Below are positions 10,662 to 33,099 of a DNA stretch of 34,334 bases, piece after piece. Made by a program: the position numbers and the translations under genes. Origin of the DNA: Rhizaria sp. SCN 62-66 (taxonomy: Eukaryota); NCBI GenBank assembly GCA_001724265.1, contig MEDY01000323.1:1-34334 (forward strand). The letters are read 5' to 3'. Position 1 is the stretch's first letter. Every line of letters begins with the position of its first letter. A model generated the notes under the pieces. The model searched no databases. It saw nothing but the letters and a program-made list of their open reading frames with translations, and was not told the DNA's origin.

Positions 10662-13600
10662 ATGCGCATCAAGGTCGCAGTCGCTTTTGTCATGGCCATT
10701 TTGGCCATGGCATGGGCTGCTGCTGAGCCCGAGGTGAGCGCCTTGCAGTCCGCCAGTGCCTCCTCCCAGGAGGTTCTTGCGCTGGACAGCGATGTTGCGT
10801 ACGAGATCAACGATATGTTCGATACGTCTCTCGTCGAGGTACGTTCCCTCTTTCAGATCCCAACTAAATCCGACCCCATTTGCCCCTTGAAATCCGTTCC
10901 GGTAGGAGCCACCCCATGCCGACCCTGGTCTCCTTTGCACGTTGCTTACCTTCCGACTTTACCCACCTTTTCCCCCCAATTTCGCCCTTGCTTTATAGAC
11001 TGATGCTGAGGCTGAAGTCGAGATTGACTCCGAGTCTGAGTCTGAGGTCGAGCGCCGCCGCCGCCGTCGCCGTGGTGGCCGTCGCTGCCGCAAGCTCCGC
11101 CGCCGCCAGCGCCGCCAGCTCAAGAACCTCCGCCGCCAGCTTGCTGCTCTGAAGAAGCGTGGCAAGACTGCTCGCAACAAGTCTTTCCGCCGTGTTCGTA
11201 AGGCCATCCGTCGCCTCCGTGGCTGCCGTGGTGGCCGCCGTGGACGTCGTGGAGGCCGCCGCTGCCGCAAGCTCCGCCGTCGCCAGCGCCGCCAGCTCAA
11301 GAACCTGCGTCGCCAGCTTGCTGCTCTGAAGAAGCGTGGCAAGACTGCTCGCAACAAGTCTTTCCGCCGTGTTCGTAAGGCCATCCATCGCCTCCGTGGC
11401 TGCCGTGGTGGCCGCCGTGGACGTGGTCGTAAGCTCACTCCTGCCCAGCGTGCCCGCCTCATCCGCCTACGCCGCACTCTTAAGACGCTCCGCCGCTCCC
11501 GTCAGGGCAAGTCTCCTCGCGCCAAGAAGATCCGCCGCGCGATCCGCAAGCTCACCGGTGGCCGTCGCCGCCGTGGTGGCCGCAAGCTCAACCCTGCCCA
11601 GCGCGCTCGTCTTAACAAGCTTCGCCGCACTCTCCGCCAGCTTCGCCGCTCCCGTCAGGGCAAGTCCCCCCGTGCCAAGAAGATCCGCCGTGCGATCCGC
11701 AAGCTCCGTGGTGGTCGCCGTGGCCGTGGCCGCAAGCTCAACCCTGCCCAGCGCAAGCGCGTGAAGGACATCCGCCGCAAGCTGCACGCTCTCCGCCGCA
11801 CTAAGCAGACCAAGTCTGCTCAGTTCCGCCAGCTGCGCCGTGCTCTCCGCGCCCTCGTCGGCCGCCGCCGTGGCCCCCGCATGACCCCTGCTCAGCGCCG
11901 CGCCCGCAAGGCGCTCCGCCGCCAGATCAAGGCGTTCCGCGGCGACCGCAAGAGCAAGCAGTTCCGCAAGCTTCTCCACCGCGCCCGTGCTATCAAGCTC
12001 CAGGCCAAGCGCAACGCCATGCGCCACCGCGTCCAGAAGATCAAGAAGGCCCTCAAGCAGCTCCGTGCCCGCAACCAGACCAAGACTGCTGCGTACCGCA
12101 AGCTCCGCGCCAAGCTGGCTCACGCCCGCCGCCGCGTAGCTGGCCGCAACCGCCTCAACCCTGCTGAGCGTGCCAAGCTTGCCAAGCTCCGCCGCCGCCT
12201 CCGCAACATGCGCCGCTCTCGCCAGACCAAGACTGCTGCTTACCGCCGCACTCGCCACGCCGTCAAGCGCCTGCAGACCAAGGCCCGTGGCCGTCTCCCG
12301 CGCCTCAATGCCGTCCAGCGCCGCCGCGTCCAGAAGCTGCAGGCCGCGCTCCGTAGCATGCGCCGTGCCCGCCAGACCCGCTCGTGGCGCTACCGCAACA
12401 CCCGCGCCAAGATCAACCGCGTCTACGCGCAGGCCCGCCACCAGATCTGGGTCCGCAACCACCGCAAGCACCTGATGCGCCGCATCCGCAAGACTCAGCG
12501 CAAGCTTAACCAGCTTAAGGTTGTTGGCAAGACCAAGGGCCGCACCGTTCGCCGCCTCCAGCGCCGCCTGAACCGCCTTCGTGCGGCTCACCGCCACCCC
12601 CGCTGGCTCTCTGCCTACGCCAAGAAGCAGATCCGCATCCTCAAGAAGCGTCTCCGCCGCATGCGCAAGGCCCAGAAGACCAAGTTCCCCAAGTACCGCA
12701 AGCTCCGCCGCCGCCTCGCTCACATCCGCAAGCACGGCGCTAAGAAGCCCCGCTCCCTTGGCCGTCACCTCCTGGTCCGCATGCAGCGCGCCCTCAACAA
12801 GCTCCGCGCCACCGGCCAGGGCACCTCGAAGCAGGCCCGCAAGCTCGTCCGCCGCATCAACAAGGTCCGCCGCATCTCTCGCAAGATGGTTAAGGCTCGC
12901 AAGAGTGGTAACCGCATCCTGTTCAACAAGCTCCGCCAGAAGCTCCGCAACATGGCCCGCCCCGCGCGCCCCATGACCCTCAAGCAGCGCATCCGCCGCC
13001 TGTCGAACCGCATCCAGAAGATCAGCAACCACCTTAACCGCGCCAAGGCGACTGGTGACAACCAGAAGGTCGAGCGCCTCACCAAGAAGGTCGAGCGCAT
13101 GCGCTCCAAGATCGAGAAGCTCCGTCGCCGCCAGGAGATGGATGACCGTTTCAAGGTTATGGGCACTACCAACCAGAACAACTCGACCCGTGGCTCCCGC
13201 AGCTCCTTCACTGGCCGTCCCTCCCGCGTCACGCGCCGCTTCCTCCGCAACACTAACAGCATCGCCAGCCGCCTCGCGGCGATGGCCGGCTCGGCCCAGA
13301 ACCAGGAGATGGTGAACAAGATCAAGGAGGTCCAGACCCGTATCTTCTCTGCCCGTGCCACGATTGCCCGTCGCATGAAGGCGGCCAAGGTCATGAAGGC
13401 CCGTGCCATGCGCATGGCCTCCAAGGCCGAGTACGACAAGAAGCGCTACGAGGTCCGCCGCTCCCGTAAGTGGCTCCGTCGCCTCCGCCGCGACCGCCGC
13501 CGTGCCGCCAAGCTGAACCGCCGCGCCGAGCGCCAGGCCAAGTACGCCCAGAGCATTGCCACCCGCGCCCGCACCGCGATCAAGGCTGACCGCGTTGTCG

Positions 13601-14010
13601 CCAACACCCAGCACCTCCAGCTCCGCGACGCGCTCCCCGCCGAGGCCCGCCCTCTGCTCGACGAGCTCGCGCAGTCGTACACCAACGCCGAGAACCAGAT
13701 CCGCGGCGAGATCCAGCAGCACCGCGTGCCGCCCACCAACATCGAGTACGTGCCCCCCGCCAAGACGGCCCCCATCCAGGCCATGGTCAACACCGCGGCC
13801 GCTCCCGTCACCGCCCTCCCCGGCTCCAAGCTCCCTGCCCCCGGCACCGGCCTGCTTGTTGACCCCAACTACAAGGGCATGACCGCGGCTCAGGCTGAGG
13901 CGATGTATGCGCGGCTTCGCGAACAAAACAAGTATCGAGATTTCTCTAGCGAGTTCATCGATAAGCACCTCGGCACTACTGCCCAGATCCCTCCTTCCAA
14001 CACGGTCTAA
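10662..14010 (+). CDS. Secreted, extremely Arg/Lys-rich helical-repeat protein with acidic pro-region, 1062 aa, 2 exons
   Basis: Exons 10662-10838 and 10999-14010; intron 10839-10998 (GTACGT...TAG). Exon 2 is in frame with the 11761..14010 ORF. Signal peptide MRIKVAVAFVMAILAMAWA, acidic ...SLVE|TDAEAEVEIDSESESEVE, then RRRRRRRGGRRCRKL... Strong CGC/AAG/CTC codon bias. Confidence 0.9.
11074..11760 (+). repeat. Internal coding repeats of the cationic protein: a 177-bp near-perfect duplication, then ~150-bp units
   Basis: CRKLRRRQRRQLKNL starts at 11086 and 11263 (period 177). RKL(T/N)PAQR starts at 11428, 11581 and 11731 (periods 153 and 150). Confidence 0.9.
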
Positions 14011-26232: not shown

Positions 26233-26719
26233 GGTAGCGGGGGATCTAAGGAGCAAGAGTGGCACACGACGAGGGTCAGGAGGTGAGCGAAACCAAGGGA
26301 GGTATTTGGCACTACAGAAGACATTTCCAAGTTGTGTCATATATAAAGGGTATATAAAATAATATATTATAACGGAAACAGCTTGATTTGAAAACAGAGA
26401 CGGATGGAGCAGAGAAATCTATAAGTTCAAAATTGCACAGTCCCCTCAACCACAAAAATCTGGCTCTTGTGGTGCGGCATGTTGCCTCTGAAAAAGCTGC
26501 CTATATCACACCACCACCATCGTGAAGTTGCCTGCGAGCGCTGCTCTGGGACTGCCTCGTACTAAATCTTAGAGAATCATATGTCGTATGCACCCCATCT
26601 TTTGTACAGCGCTCACGATTCCTACCACAAATACTCCCTCTTTCACCCACCGCAGAGTTTCCTAGAACCTGTATCTTTCCTCTACCAGCCCCGTTCTCGC
26701 GCGTAGTTCGCCTTCTCTC

Positions 26720-29700
26720 ATGTTTGCGCACACCGCCGGGGCTCAGGCACCCCCTGCTGCGGCACTGCTGACTGCAGAGCATCCTCTTCAGCGTCTTGTG
26801 ACACTCTCCGAAGACACTCTTCGCAAGCATGCTTTCGTCGGTGGTGAGGCTTCGGAGAATGCTCCGAGCGCTCTGTCTCTCCTCGCTCTTGTCTTTACCA
26901 CCAGTGACGCCAGCGCAGAGACTGACAGCGATGGTGACAGCGACGACGATGCCGACTCGGAAGCCGACGCTGAGGCGGAGGCTGACTTCGCAACAGAGTC
27001 TGCGCTCCTCACCCTCACCGCCACCGCCGCAGCTGTTACTGCACTCACTAACGCTAAGCCCAACCACAACAGCAACAGCACTTCGTCTAGCAGCTCCAGC
27101 TCCAACTCGAACTCTGGCAGCTCAAGCTCTGGCTCTAGTACCAGCAGCGGCAACAGCAACAACAAAGCGAGCCTCCCGCCCGTAAGGCTCACCGCTGTGG
27201 AGCAACTGCTTTGCGGCGCCGCCGCCGGCGCCGTGGGCAAGACGGTCGTTGCGCCGTTCGACCGCGTGAAGCTGCTCTACATGGTCAACCCGGCGCGCAC
27301 GTTTACGTTTACGGCGGCGACCAAGACGTTCCGCACGATCTTCGTCAACACGGGCGTGTCGGGGCTGTTCAAGGGCAACGGCAGCGCCATGTGGCGCGTC
27401 CTGCCCTACTCGGCCCTCACCTTCACCACCTTCGACCGCTACCATCGCTATCTCCGCGCGAACCTGCCCGACGAGGCCAACCACCCGGTTGTGGCGCGCT
27501 TTCTCGCCGGCGCGGCCGCGGGCACGACCGCGACGGTGCTGACGTACCCGCTCGACGTGCTGCGCGCGCGCGCCGCGGCGCACTGGGGCGCCAACGCGCT
27601 CTACTCGAGCGCCGGCAAGGGCATCGCGGACATCGTGCAGAAGGAGGGCGTGCGCGCGCTCTTCGCGGGCATCATGCCGACGCTCTACGGCATCGTGCCC
27701 TACGGCGGTATCTCCTTCGCCGTGTTCGAGACGCTCAAGGCGGCCTACGTCACGGCCGTGCTCCCTGCCGGCAGCAAGGACAGCGACGTGCCCGCCGCCG
27801 TGCGCTTCATTGCGGGCGGGCTGGCGGGCGTGGCGGCGACGACGGTGGTGCAGCCGCTGCAGATCGTGCGGCGCCGCATGCAAGTCAGCACAGTCGTCGA
27901 CGGCATGCCGCAGTACCGCTCCACGCTCCACGCACTCAAAGTCATCTACATGACCGAGGGCGTGTACCGCGGGCTCTTCAAGGGGCTCATGCTGACGTGG
28001 CTCAAGGCGCCCGTGTCGATGGCCGTGTCCTTCACCGTCAACGACTGGCTGCGGCACAAGCTACTCAAGTACCACACCAACGCGCGCGACGAGTGGCAGG
28101 CCGCGACGGCGGAGCGCAAGCGCGCGCGCGAGGCCGAGGAGGCGCGCGCCGCCCGCGCCGCGAGCTACCGCAAGGCCGTCATCCGCGAGCTCGTCGCCAC
28201 TGGTGCCGTGTCGGTCACGGCCAAGACTGACGCCGGCAGCAGCGCCGCGGCGATCGACGACACCACGGGCGTGGCCGTCGTCGGTGGCAGCGCCAGTGCC
28301 AGCGACAGCGTCGGTAGTGTGGGTGCGGACGACGCTGCTGCGAACGCTGCGACCGGTGCTGAGAGCGCGGTGAGAAATCTCAGTGGCAGCCGTGACCAGA
28401 CCGCGCCCGCGCCCGCGACTGCGGCCGGCGGCGCGAGCGCCATTGGCGGCGCCATTGGCGGCGCGACCAACGTCGTGACAGTGCGGCGCCGCCGGTCCGG
28501 CCCGGCCGCGACGCTCGAGGACGACGGCGTGGCTTGGGTGTCGGCGTCCATCGCGCTCTCCGAGGGCGAGAGCGGCGCCGCCGGCAGCGGTGACGGCGCG
28601 GATATCGACCACGCGAACTTAGCCACGATTGGCGAGTTCGGCGGCGGCCCGCATAGCCAGTGTGTTCATAGCCACCAGGGCGGCGAGTGCGGTGTGTGCC
28701 GCTACTGCCGCAGCCTCGCTGCCGCCAGCGAGGCCGCCACGACCACCGCCGCCGCGCGCGCCGCCGCTCTGGCCCTCAGTGCTAACACCGCCGCCAGCGC
28801 GGGCGCAGCTGCCTCTCAGAACAGCACCAGCACCAGCAGCAGCGCTGTCTCCGACAAAGACGCTGCGAAGGCGACCGCCGAGACCGTGGCCGCCGCCGAG
28901 GCCGCCGCGGAGGCCGCCGCCGCGACGGCCGAGATCGGCGGCTGGAACGACGCTCTGGTCGACGCGCTGCTCGAGACGCACAGCAGCACCGGCAGCATCG
29001 GCGCCTTCGCGCTCAGCGCGCCCTTCCTGGCCGCCGTGTGCGACTGCGTCGAGGCCAAGGTCTCCGCCGCGGCCGCCGCAGCCGCCGTGGCCGCCATCGC
29101 CGCGGCCGACAGCAACGTCAACAGCGGCCAGATGACTGTGACGGGCCCCCCGCCGGCGCCGGCACCCGTGAGCCCCGAGGTTGAGGCCGACGCGGTCACG
29201 TCGTGCACGGCGGAGTGCGTGAGCGCGTATCAGCACGAGCGCGACGCCAACGCCAACGCCGCCGCGTGCTCCGCAGCGGCGGCAACGACAGCGGCGGCGG
29301 CCGCGACGGCAACGGCAGGCGTTGGCGCCAAGACGGCTGCTGGTGCTACCGCTGCTGCTGCCGACAAGGCTGCTTTGGGCGCGGCGGCGTCGAGCGCGTC
29401 GACAACGATGCCCGGCGACGCGAGCGGCAAGTTCAGTCTCCTCACTGGTCTGAGAACAAGCACGAGTGACAGCGGCAGCACGAGCAGCTCCAGTTCACGC
29501 GCCGGCGCGGGCGGCAAACAGTGTAAGACCGTCACCCCGGTGCCCCACATCGAGCTGCGGTCCGACAACGTGCGTCTGAGCTCCGAGGCGCTGCTGCTCG
29601 CCGGTGGCCTCGCCGGCGCCTGTGCTAAGACCGTGATCGCGCCTGCCGACAACATCAAGATTCTCTACCAAGTCGACCCCAACAAGCGCTTTACCTACAA

Positions 29701-30556
29701 GTCCGCGCTCCAGACGGGCAAGTCTATCGTCGCGAGCGCCGGCGTGCGTGGGCTCTGGCGCGGCCACGGCGCCACGCTGCTGCGCGTCGTGCCCTACGCC
29801 GCCGTGACCTTTGCGACGTTCGACCGGTTCCACGAGGCGGTGAACAAGGCGCTGTACTCGGACCCCTCGGAGCTGAGTGACGGCGCCGTCGTCACGCTGC
29901 CCGACGGCACGGTGCAGGTCAACTGGACCGCGCCGGGCCCGCACGACGTTGTGGCGCGCTTCCTGGCGGGCGCGATGGCCGGCGCGACGGCGACCGCGCT
30001 GACGTACCCGCTGGACCTCATGCGCGCGCGGCAGGCGGCGTCGATCACGAGCGCGCCGCTCTACTCGTCCTACTGGTCCGGCTTCCGCTCCATCGTGCAG
30101 GGCGAGGGCGTGACGGCGTTGTGGGCCGGGCTGAAGCCCACGCTGCTGGGCATCGTGCCCTACGCCGGGCTGTCCTTCTCGATCTTCCACTCGATCAAGC
30201 GCGAGATCCGCGAGCGCGGCAACTACAAGACCGACTCGCACATCCCCACGTGGGCGCGCCTCCTGGCCGGCGGCGCGGCCGGCCTGCTCGCGCAGTCGCT
30301 CACATACCCGCTGGACATCATCCGCCGCAGGAACCAGGTCGGCACGCTGCAGGGCGTCGGCACGGGACGCGCCCTGCGCACCATCTACGCCACCGAGGGA
30401 CTCAAGAACGGGCTCTTCCGGGGGCTGTCGATGAACTGGATGAAGGGTCCCGTTGCGTCTGCCGTCAGTTTCACCGTCAATGACAGGCTTAAGACGTGGA
30501 TGGCGCGGCGCCAGATCAAGTTGGAGCACGGAGAGAAGCCGTCTACGCTGCATTAA
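26720..30556 (+). CDS. Tandem double mitochondrial carrier (two 3-repeat SLC25 units, CoA-carrier SLC25A42/Leu5-like) joined by a long Ala-rich linker, 1278 aa
   Basis: Unit 1 signatures APFDRVK, YPLDVLRAR, QPLQIVRRR; unit 2 APADNIK, YPLDLMRAR, YPLDIIRRR. GNGSAMWRVLPY/GHGATLLRVVPY, GIVPYxG and GLSMNWMKGP resemble the CoA-carrier subfamily. One uninterrupted ORF. Confidence 0.88.
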   Translation: MFAHTAGAQAPPAAALLTAEHPLQRLVTLSEDTLRKHAFVGGEASENAPSALSLLALVFTTSDASAETDSDGDSDDDADSEADAEAEADFATESALLTLTATAAAVTALTNAKPNHNSNSTSSSSSSSNSNSGSSSSGSSTSSGNSNNKASLPPVRLTAVEQLLCGAAAGAVGKTVVAPFDRVKLLYMVNPARTFTFTAATKTFRTIFVNTGVSGLFKGNGSAMWRVLPYSALTFTTFDRYHRYLRANLPDEANHPVVARFLAGAAAGTTATVLTYPLDVLRARAAAHWGANALYSSAGKGIADIVQKEGVRALFAGIMPTLYGIVPYGGISFAVFETLKAAYVTAVLPAGSKDSDVPAAVRFIAGGLAGVAATTVVQPLQIVRRRMQVSTVVDGMPQYRSTLHALKVIYMTEGVYRGLFKGLMLTWLKAPVSMAVSFTVNDWLRHKLLKYHTNARDEWQAATAERKRAREAEEARAARAASYRKAVIRELVATGAVSVTAKTDAGSSAAAIDDTTGVAVVGGSASASDSVGSVGADDAAANAATGAESAVRNLSGSRDQTAPAPATAAGGASAIGGAIGGATNVVTVRRRRSGPAATLEDDGVAWVSASIALSEGESGAAGSGDGADIDHANLATIGEFGGGPHSQCVHSHQGGECGVCRYCRSLAAASEAATTTAAARAAALALSANTAASAGAAASQNSTSTSSSAVSDKDAAKATAETVAAAEAAAEAAAATAEIGGWNDALVDALLETHSSTGSIGAFALSAPFLAAVCDCVEAKVSAAAAAAAVAAIAAADSNVNSGQMTVTGPPPAPAPVSPEVEADAVTSCTAECVSAYQHERDANANAAACSAAAATTAAAAATATAGVGAKTAAGATAAAADKAALGAAASSASTTMPGDASGKFSLLTGLRTSTSDSGSTSSSSSRAGAGGKQCKTVTPVPHIELRSDNVRLSSEALLLAGGLAGACAKTVIAPADNIKILYQVDPNKRFTYKSALQTGKSIVASAGVRGLWRGHGATLLRVVPYAAVTFATFDRFHEAVNKALYSDPSELSDGAVVTLPDGTVQVNWTAPGPHDVVARFLAGAMAGATATALTYPLDLMRARQAASITSAPLYSSYWSGFRSIVQGEGVTALWAGLKPTLLGIVPYAGLSFSIFHSIKREIRERGNYKTDSHIPTWARLLAGGAAGLLAQSLTYPLDIIRRRNQVGTLQGVGTGRALRTIYATEGLKNGLFRGLSMNWMKGPVASAVSFTVNDRLKTWMARRQIKLEHGEKPSTLH

Positions 30557-30888: not shown

Positions 30889-33099
30889 TCACTCGCCGAT
30901 GACAACGACCTTGAAGTTCTTGCCGCCAGAGCGCAGCAGCACGACTTTGTCCATCAACACGTGCTCCTTCTCGCACAGCCTTGGCCCCAACGCCGCCGAA
31001 GCGCCACCAGCGCCAGCAGCAGCAGCAGCAGCGTCTCCCTCGGCCGCGACGTGGATTTGCTTGTGGTTGACGTAGAACCCGCCCTGGGAGAGCAGACGGC
31101 GCGCGGCTGCCTTGGACGCGGCAAGGCCGGACTTGACCGCCAGGTCGACAAGTAGCATGCCCGAGCCGGCCTCAGCGCCCGCGACGGCGGCGGCAGGGAA
31201 GAGCTCGCCGCGCGCAATCGTGACGGTGGGGACTCCGGACAGCGCGGCGACGAGCTCGTCCGCAGTCACGCTCACGGCGGACGCAGTCTCAGTCGCGGAC
31301 GCTGACTATGACGCAGACGCGCTGTTATTGTTGGACACGATAAAGGGCGCGGCGGACCCCGGCAGCGGCGGCCACTGGACCAGCTCTGGCACGACGATCC
31401 CCGCCGCGATCGTGTGCGCGCTGACAGGCGGGCGTGGGAAGAGCGTCTCGGTGGCGACAACGGCGTTCTTGACGCCCGGGAGCCCGTGGACGAGGTGCAC
31501 GACGTGCATGCCCAGCACGCGCTGCGCCAGCCGCTGCTCGGGTTCGATCGCGTGCGCCGCCGTCACCGCGGCTACCGCGGGCTCGGACAGCAGCGTCAGC
31601 AGCCGCAGCAGGCGCGGGCAGTCGGCGTCCGTGGTCTGCAGCAGGTACTGGTATAGCGCGTATGGCGTCGTGAGCGTGGGATCCAGCCACAGCGCGTTAC
31701 CGGCCGACTTGCCGAACTTGGCGCCCGAGGATGTCGTCAGAAGCGGCAGCGTGAGGCCGTGCAAACCGTCGTGCTCCTCGTTGCCAGCAGCAGCAGCTGC
31801 TGTTGCCGCGGTAGGAGCTAATCCCTTTTTCTTGGAGTCGCCCTTCTTGGCGTTCTTGCCGTCAGCGCTCGGGACGGCCGCGGCAGCACCGGCGGCGTTG
31901 TTGCTGATGCTGCTGTGTGCGTTCTTGACGCGGCTGTAGTAGTCGACACCGGCGGTGATGTTGCCCCACTGGTCGCTGCCGCCGAGCTGCACCGTACAGT
32001 CGAGCGTCTTCTTGAGGTGCGCGAAGTCGTAGCCCTGCAGCGCCTGGTAGCTGAACTCGGTGAACGACATGCCGTCGGCCTCGGCGGCGGCCGCGCCCGC
32101 AGAAACGTCGGCCGCTGCGGGCGCGGCCGAGTCAGCCGCCGGGGCCTCCATGCGGCGCTTGACCGAGTCCTTCGCGAGCATGGAGCCGAGACGAAAGTAC
32201 TTACCGACGTCGCGCAGGAAGGCGATGACGGACATGGCGTTGTACCAGTCGGCGTTGTTCACCACCGTCACCTTCTTCGCGCTGCTGGCAGGAGTGCTAT
32301 TCGTGGCCACGTTGCCGTAATCGGGGTCAGAGATCGCGGTCACGTCGGCGGTGGCACGGGCGAGCATCCTGCTCAGAACGGCCTCGATCCCCTTGACGTT
32401 GGCCTTGACGTCGTCCTCGCTCAGCAGTGTGCGCTCAGAGCTGCGGCCGGAGGGGTCGCCAATCATGCCAGTGCCGCCGCCAACCAGCGCGACGGCCTTG
32501 TGGCCCATGCGCTGGCTGTGCGCGAGCGCGAGGATGACGAGGAGGTTGCCCAGGTGCAGCGACGACGCGGTGGGGTCGAAGCCCGCATACAAAGAACGCA
32601 CGGGGATTGACACAGTCTCGCCCTCCTGGGCAGAAACCGCGCCATTAGACGCTGCACTAACAGAAGCGTCTGCGGGTGAAGTCACATCAGCGGGCGCGTT
32701 CGTGCTGGGGCGCTGCAGAGGCGCGGAGCGCTTGGTGGGAGAAGGGGCGAAGTGTCGATCGATGCCGGGCGTGGACTGGTGCAGGAAGCCACGAGTGCGG
32801 AAAAAGTCCACAAGAGACTCATGAGAGGTTGTGTCAGAAACGGGCACAGTGCGGCCAGCAGTCGGAGTCGTAGGCAAGTATGAGTAACTGAAAGGGGCGG
32901 CGCTGGAAGCATCGGTGGAGGCGGAGGCAGAAGCGCCAGGGTGTGCGGACGCCGATGCGGAGAAAAGACGTGAAGTTCGCGGCAGTGGTAGTGTAACAAG
33001 AGCAAACTCTAAACCACGGAAGCGCAATTCGGGCAGTGATGTTGTGGTTAGAAGACGGCGCGACGTGGCGACGGACAGAGACCGCGCGCGGGCCAGCAT
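30889..33099 (-). CDS. YARS2: Bacterial-type (mitochondrial) tyrosyl-tRNA synthetase with C-terminal S4-like domain, interrupted by one in-frame TAG at 31306-31308
   Basis: YAGFDPTASSLHLGN (HIGH), IGDPSGRSSER, FTEFSYQALQGYDF, QLGGSDQWGNI, KFGKS (KMSKS). The same frame continues after the TAG into LAVKSGLAASKAAARRLLSQGGFYVN...LLRSGGKNF, TGA at 30889. Presequence-like N-terminus. Confidence 0.93.

Follow-up and report, generated by a model that had tools for sequence, protein, structure and literature searches.

A probable new nuclear genetic code in a putative cercozoan, with UAG read as glutamate and UAA and UGA kept as stops

We describe the genome of an uncultured wastewater protist in which UAG is almost certainly a sense codon and in which the nuclear code very probably assigns UAG to glutamate while retaining UAA and UGA as stops. 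Judged from the sequence, we think it likely that this is a new nuclear code in a GC-rich cercozoan, at a stage soon after codon capture: its gene ends are free of TAG, a single divergent tRNA-Glu(CUA) is present, and UAG is starting to spread through genes and sits within the gene for the release factor eRF1 itself. On the same reading, it would be the second independent reassignment of UAG in Rhizaria.

The window analysed here, 34,334 nucleotides long, is the complete contig C323 of a 34.9-Mb eukaryotic assembly of 714 contigs, and it was found in sequencing runs whose labels read bioreactor, wastewater or activated sludge. It carries a mitochondrial/bacterial-type tyrosyl-tRNA synthetase (TyrRS) gene (Table 1) with a TAG in the context GCG TCA TAG TCA GCG. 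The first-pass annotation had placed this in-frame UAG between the catalytic part and a same-frame S4-like domain, and the open reading frame, the Pfam domains and the homologues all confirm that arrangement. The S4 match itself is weak (aa 650-680, 21.5 bits, under the 22.8 cut-off), and the part after the TAG (aa 599-736, 138 residues) matches all 119 of 119 TyrRS homologues. Since the TAG column falls in an insertion without counterpart in 116 of these 119, this site by itself does not identify the residue. In the protein collection, TyrRS ends at the TAG on 6 contigs. The TyrRS TAG is genuine and belongs to a change of code seen across the genome. It was also described as the only internal TAG of the window, which is borne out, as no other passed the filters used. 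Of the 12 terminal stops first reported for the window (7 TGA, 5 TAA, no TAG), the absence of TAG gene ends stands and the exact count was not reproduced: coding frames end at 5 TAA and 6 TGA, one of the latter just inside an intron, and the single TAG frame end falls within an intron.

Table 1. Coordinates of the TyrRS gene, its parts and the tRNA(CUA) gene. Positions are those of the window unless a contig is given.
Feature	Position	Strand	Evidence or remark
Mitochondrial/bacterial-type tyrosyl-tRNA synthetase gene	30889..33099	-	736 codons, one in-frame TAG, intron unnecessary
Catalytic domain PF00579 (tRNA-synt_1b), aa 169-554	31438..32595	-	Pfam, E 2.7e-63
Ser/Ala-rich lineage-specific insertion, ~aa 555-606, contains the TAG	31282..31437	-	Homologue alignment
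In-frame TAG, codon 598, sense, most likely Glu (judged from other genes)	31306..31308	-	
C-terminal S4-like domain, intact and in frame	30892..31281	-	Weak S4 and SYY_C matches; 119/119 homologues matched
Terminal TGA stop, then AT-rich 3' region	30889..30891	-	
Proposed 120-nt intron, rejected	31306..31425	-	Composition, donor, unspliced polyA contig
tRNA(CUA) gene	G000:C84:76009-76081	-	Pattern search, ARAGORN, Rfam 58 bits

Three further genes in the window are recorded here as observations in their own right. A secreted protein with a Tae4-type amidase domain (1334-2041, - strand; PF14113, E 2e-11) was perhaps acquired from bacteria for prey digestion. The frame at 10999-14010 (+) is repetitive, encodes 1,000 extremely Arg/Lys-rich residues and has no Pfam match, and a single frame at 26666-30556 (+) contains two entire mitochondrial carriers, with 6 repeats in all and a long Ala-rich linker between them.

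A TCG-to-TAG error or a nonsense allele had been proposed as an equally simple account of the TyrRS codon. When the codon was checked in contigs of the sequencing runs, those of run X1 (a possible source run; 31043-31991) and of run X4, which comes from a different study (31043-31447), both kept the TAG and crossed it with zero differing letters; the identical letter in a second study's contigs makes an assembly error unlikely. Run X6 also covers the codon and continues only 22 bases beyond it, less than the 31 letters set for spanning, and the codon lies outside the coverage of the polyA run X5. The alternative of a 120-nt intron ending at the TAG is likewise unlikely. At 68% GC, the segment has an exon-like score of +0.03 per base; a real intron of eRF1 has 52% GC and scores -0.17. 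Its donor, GTCAGC, which had already been flagged as lacking the consensus, contrasts with the observed donors GTACG, GTATG and GTCCG; the donor consensus in the genome sample is GTACG, not GTRAG. An X5 polyA contig (31343-31659), from a library that may contain DNA, runs unspliced over the proposed donor.

The use of stop codons was surveyed in about 1 Mb (1,004,056 bases, overlapping loci included, sites de-duplicated), or roughly 3% of the genome, chosen partly blind (614 kb) and partly around family matches. For calling frame ends we trained a coding model on these data, and an end counted as donor-free when no splice donor lay within 60 nt. TAA or TGA terminates 133 frames, 104 of them donor-free (50 TAA, 54 TGA). 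TAG ends only four, three of which lie just inside GT introns, while the fourth is followed by eight further codons of the same acidic tract and then by TGA; genuine TAG gene ends amount to 0 or 1 of 105 non-intronic ends. Conversely, 18 TAG codons continue in frame, compared with no TGA and one TAA, a doubtful case in a repetitive stretch. After ORFs of at least 500 codons (434 kb), the median number of open codons was ~12 behind TAA (n=23), 11 behind TGA (n=31) and ~150 behind TAG (n=16). The base after the terminal stop is mostly G for both TAA (42 of 61) and TGA (39 of 67) in the genome sample. The suggestion that UAG is a rare sense codon thus holds genome-wide; in the sampled 3%, at most one gene end is TAG, and the many conserved genes ending in TAG that would have spoken against it were not found. 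In the blind 614 kb, UAG accounts for 14 of 91,559 codons (1 in 6,500), which puts it below even the infrequent codons ATA, AGA and TTA and makes it equal to ~0.4% of Glu codons (GAG 3,383, GAA 424). Extrapolation from these 14 sites gives about 800 UAG sites genome-wide.

The excess of TAG among internal stops is by itself weak evidence. For 14 TAG among 15 internal stops P=0.09, and point changes drawn from codon usage alone would yield 76% TAG, so that mutation under the standard code would also favour TAG among nonsense changes. Raw counts of stops inside family matches mislead as well, owing to acceptor TAGs: among 142 kinase matches, nine lone TAGs comprised four splice acceptors and five internal codons, and the TAGs at the edges of helicase, Ras, SNF2 and kinesin matches were for the most part acceptors too. 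The one lone TGA examined among family matches with a lone TAA or TGA was intronic, and no internal stops were found in ABC (20 matches), WD40 (149), AAA (22) or SMC (13) families. The case for a sense UAG rests instead on the empty TAG gene ends, on the kinds of genes affected and on the machinery. In-frame UAG occurs within conserved coding sequence of eRF1, Thg1, kinases, a UBE2J-like protein, SUV3, a USP and TyrRS. The idea that the code is standard, with each TAG due to an assembly error, a nonsense allele, a pseudogene or a splice acceptor, does explain many TAGs at domain edges. It is opposed by the letter shared with a second study, by the TAG-free gene ends, by the cognate tRNA and by eRF1, which would lack its GGQ domain if cut at its TAG. 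We regard it as very improbable and already largely refuted.

The residue read at UAG is most likely glutamate, as judged from conserved positions in other genes, rather than the leucine or glutamine of the exLh and Iotanema examples. In Thg1, the TAG of SD-TAG-F falls in the SDE motif, where the opposite residue is Glu in four of four solved structures. In a kinase hinge (IVT-TAG-L), the column holds 21 Glu, 4 Asp, no Gln and no Lys among 28 of the organism's own kinases. In eRF1 (GK-TAG-KK), it holds 106 Glu, 12 Asp and 1 Val among 119 sequences, with Glu in the yeast and human structures. Elsewhere, the TAG lies opposite Asp in yeast Ubc6, Asp in human SUV3 and Ser in human UBE2J2; a USP5 alignment was set aside as uninformative, because it has a gap at the site. 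We also scored nine residues at 13 TAG sites against Pfam models, and the bit sums were E 751.6, K 744.5, Q 744.1, D 735.2, A 735.0, S 734.3, Y 723.7, L 721.4 and W 715.3. Glutamate leads lysine by 7.1 bits, glutamine by 7.5 and leucine by 30, the last of these gaps speaking against the exLh code. Most of the lead over Gln and Lys comes from two sites: once Thg1 and the hinge are left out, Glu stands +1.2 bits over Gln and -0.2 against Lys, and at a MORN site K, L, A and Q all score above E. Lysine, second in the sum and the top residue at four weakly conserved sites, is nevertheless missing from the three conserved Glu columns, and the tRNA described below is not Lys-like; lysine, or a residue outside the nine scored, is hardly credible.

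A glutamine reading, as in Iotanema and some ciliates, draws on sites of another kind. Two TAGs of contig C681 lie opposite Gln, one in a ubiquitin copy and one in a tandem repeat; further TAGs fall within poly-Gln tracts (L070, L121 twice, L173); and in the neighbour-residue context of 14 unbiased TAG sites Gln scores best (+7.3 bits, against Asp +5.2 and Glu +0.5). Gln opposite UAG is, however, confined to drifting or low-complexity sequence. Of the 23 differences between the C681 ubiquitin copy and the gene of the cell itself, 12 are C>T, which makes drift from CAG to TAG plausible, and we infer that the TAGs opposite Gln are such transitions tolerated in loose sequence. Glutamine would require Glu-to-Gln replacement in the SDE motif of Thg1, in the kinase hinge and in eRF1, yet none of the 4, 28 and 119 sequences compared has Gln there, and the acceptor stem of the CUA tRNA is of Glu type rather than Gln type. 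With conserved columns that are Glu or Asp, the Iotanema code is a poor fit, and we consider a glutamine reading decidedly unlikely. The peritrich and Blastocrithidia pattern, in which UAA is also Glu, disagrees with the frames that UAA ends here.

A tRNA with a CUA anticodon had been proposed as something to look for, and one was found. A pattern search returned 18 matches, one of which is an intron-less tRNA(CUA) (Table 1), single-copy by DNA search of the genome and followed by a run of T; its contig also encodes kinase, kinesin and WD40 genes. Among the tRNAs compared it is nearest to tRNA-Glu(CUC), with 47 of 73 bases identical (64%) in an ungapped comparison, against 40 for tRNA-Lys. The TCCCA/TGGGA acceptor is common to tRNA(CUA) and both tRNA-Glu genes and is absent from tRNA-Gln and tRNA-Lys. 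The anticodon and acceptor stems contain mismatches, and at the gathering score Rfam recognizes a generic tRNA only. ARAGORN labels the gene 'Pyl' because that label follows from the anticodon. A minimum-free-energy fold gave no cloverleaf (z -1.5) and was given no weight. The corresponding search for a UUA anticodon returned two matches, of which the one identified is tRNA-Lys(UUU). As a separate observation, several other tRNAs have unusual acceptor stems, with tRNA-Ala starting GTG, tRNA-Tyr TCC and tRNA-Ile AGT (L007-L010, L022, L015 and others).

Inspection of eRF1, likewise suggested at the outset, revealed altered stop-recognition motifs. A PF03463 search gave two hits, of which one is the only eRF1 gene found in the genome and the other presumably encodes Pelota. 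The in-frame TAG lies upstream of the GGQ domain in L033 (G000:C63:103370-103699, -) and recurs with 100% identity in L176, which may share source data; in the protein collection, eRF1 begins after the TAG on 4 contigs. The GTS motif reads GSS (T32S) at a position that is Thr in 118 of 119 homologues, with one gap. Other changes are M34V, G57S, T58K and L-to-M changes at the YxCxxxF motif. The closest relative, P0003 (84%), shares M34V and T58K, keeps Thr32 and Gly57, and carries Val opposite the TAG. Scanning metagenomes with eRF1 returned one locus, from the same organism, and no relative. According to the accessible text of PMC5304391, Thr32 of eRF1 bonds the G of UAG, and Iotanema has Gly at this position.

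These elements would fit together as follows. A tRNA-Glu duplicate may have changed its anticodon from CUC to CUA and, presumably still charged with Glu, would read UAG only; since a CUA anticodon is unable to read UAA, UAA and UGA would remain stops. T32S in the GTS loop may weaken the reading of the third-position G of UAG. In the order that we propose, UAG would have vanished from gene ends and then re-entered genes as a rare Glu codon. TyrRS would be made full length, with a probable Glu598 in a flexible linker. UAG might instead be ambiguous, read mostly as Glu through the single CUA tRNA and partly as Gln, Lys or Tyr or as residual termination, which would keep the codon rare. One tRNA gene with stem mismatches, a frequency below that of ATA, AGA and TTA, mixed Glu and Gln contexts and a change as mild as T32S are consistent with this. 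On the other side, TAG is at most a single gene end in the survey, it is carried by the apparently single-copy housekeeping genes eRF1, TyrRS, SUV3 and Thg1, and the TAG nine codons ahead of a TGA is apparently read through. Ambiguity is the most probable of the alternatives and is still unlikely.

The host of the preferred glutamate code is probably a member of Cercozoa (Rhizaria), on the basis of a one-gene tree. The first named matches to GRP94 were Paulinella, Norrisiella, Lapot and Bigelowiella, and a quick tree of this one gene (46 of 120 rows) joined it to Paulinella and five other sequences with an SH-aLRT of 95; named matches to eRF1 and TyrRS gave no placement. The cell's ubiquitin starts MSMQIF, a form that we take to resemble those of rhizarians. 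The only 18S in the bin, on contig C706 at 41% GC, was left out of the placement; it looks heterolobosean and may be mis-binned. Rosculus vilicus was rejected as the source, since the 37.7% GC given for it in the accessible text of PMC10770858 does not fit the GC-rich genes.

Several loci deserve separate mention. The C706 18S rDNA (L074:1500-5945) is divergent and extends over 4.4 kb with several group I intron-like insertions, one of which contains a His-Cys-like ORF. Unusual divergence also marks the cell's ubiquitin (L180-L183; TLANK, IFQGK, LDDGR), which is fused to L40 on two contigs. A long ORF on C681 (L179, L197; G000:C681:1-4200) combines tandem repeated domains with the captured ubiquitin copy and C>T-rich drift and may be a mobile element; its C-terminal part recalls, to our eyes, a phage-tail chaperone.

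Codes in which UAG alone is reassigned are known, as far as the accessible text of these reports goes, with Leu (rhizarian exLh, ciliates), Gln (Iotanema, ciliates, Protocruzia) and Ser (Scotinosphaera) (PMC11687900). The closest precedents are exLh (Sainouroidea), with UAG as Leu, and Iotanema spirale, with UAG as Gln (PMC5304391). Both resemble the present case in keeping UAA and UGA as stops; exLh is likewise rhizarian, and Iotanema is likewise changed at eRF1 Thr32 (PMC5304391). They differ in the amino acid, Leu or Gln as opposed to Glu here, and in exLh most marker genes hold at least one UAG, whereas here it is 1 in 6,500 codons; the cognate tRNA gene, found here, was only predicted in the portion of that work available (PMC5304391). 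Phyllopharyngean ciliates (Leu or Gln), Protocruzia (Gln) and Scotinosphaera (Ser) share UAG-only reassignment, and CUA tRNAs were found in two of those assemblies; in the text seen, none uses Glu, UAG occurs in 78-91% of genes and UAA is the predominant stop (PMC11687900), whereas here few genes have UAG and UAA and UGA split termination about equally.

Glutamate at UAG also has precedents, again as described in the accessible parts of the reports. Oligohymenophorea sp. PL0344 reads UAG as Glu through tRNA(CUA) genes nearest tRNA-Glu, but has UAA as Lys and UGA as its only stop; the identity between tRNA(CUA) and tRNA-Glu found here is a little under the 69-93% in PL0344 (PMC10553269). Peritrich ciliates (UAR=Glu) and Blastocrithidia (UAR=Glu, UGA=Trp, UAA dual) share UAG as Glu with our organism and differ in that UAA is also Glu (PMC11687900, PMC12153298). 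Blastocrithidia, too, has a tRNA-Glu(CUA), but it is AT-rich and recodes UGA (PMC12153298), unlike the GC-rich coding DNA here. UAG as Glu with UAA and UGA as stops was not described in the literature searched, which omits most subscription papers and leaves priority unproven.

In the literature consulted, as far as its accessible text shows, uncoupling UAG from UAA is rare, and Glu otherwise occurs only beside a changed UAA. Here the proposed code, the tRNA gene and the release-factor change occur side by side while the codon is still rare, and seeing them at this stage makes codon-capture and ambiguous-intermediate models testable. A natural eRF1 variant (T32S) and an amber tRNA are available for assay. 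Standard gene callers truncate proteins with UAG, such as TyrRS and eRF1. If the proposed code is correct, the UAG inside eRF1 could couple release-factor supply to UAG read-through, a possible feedback between the two.
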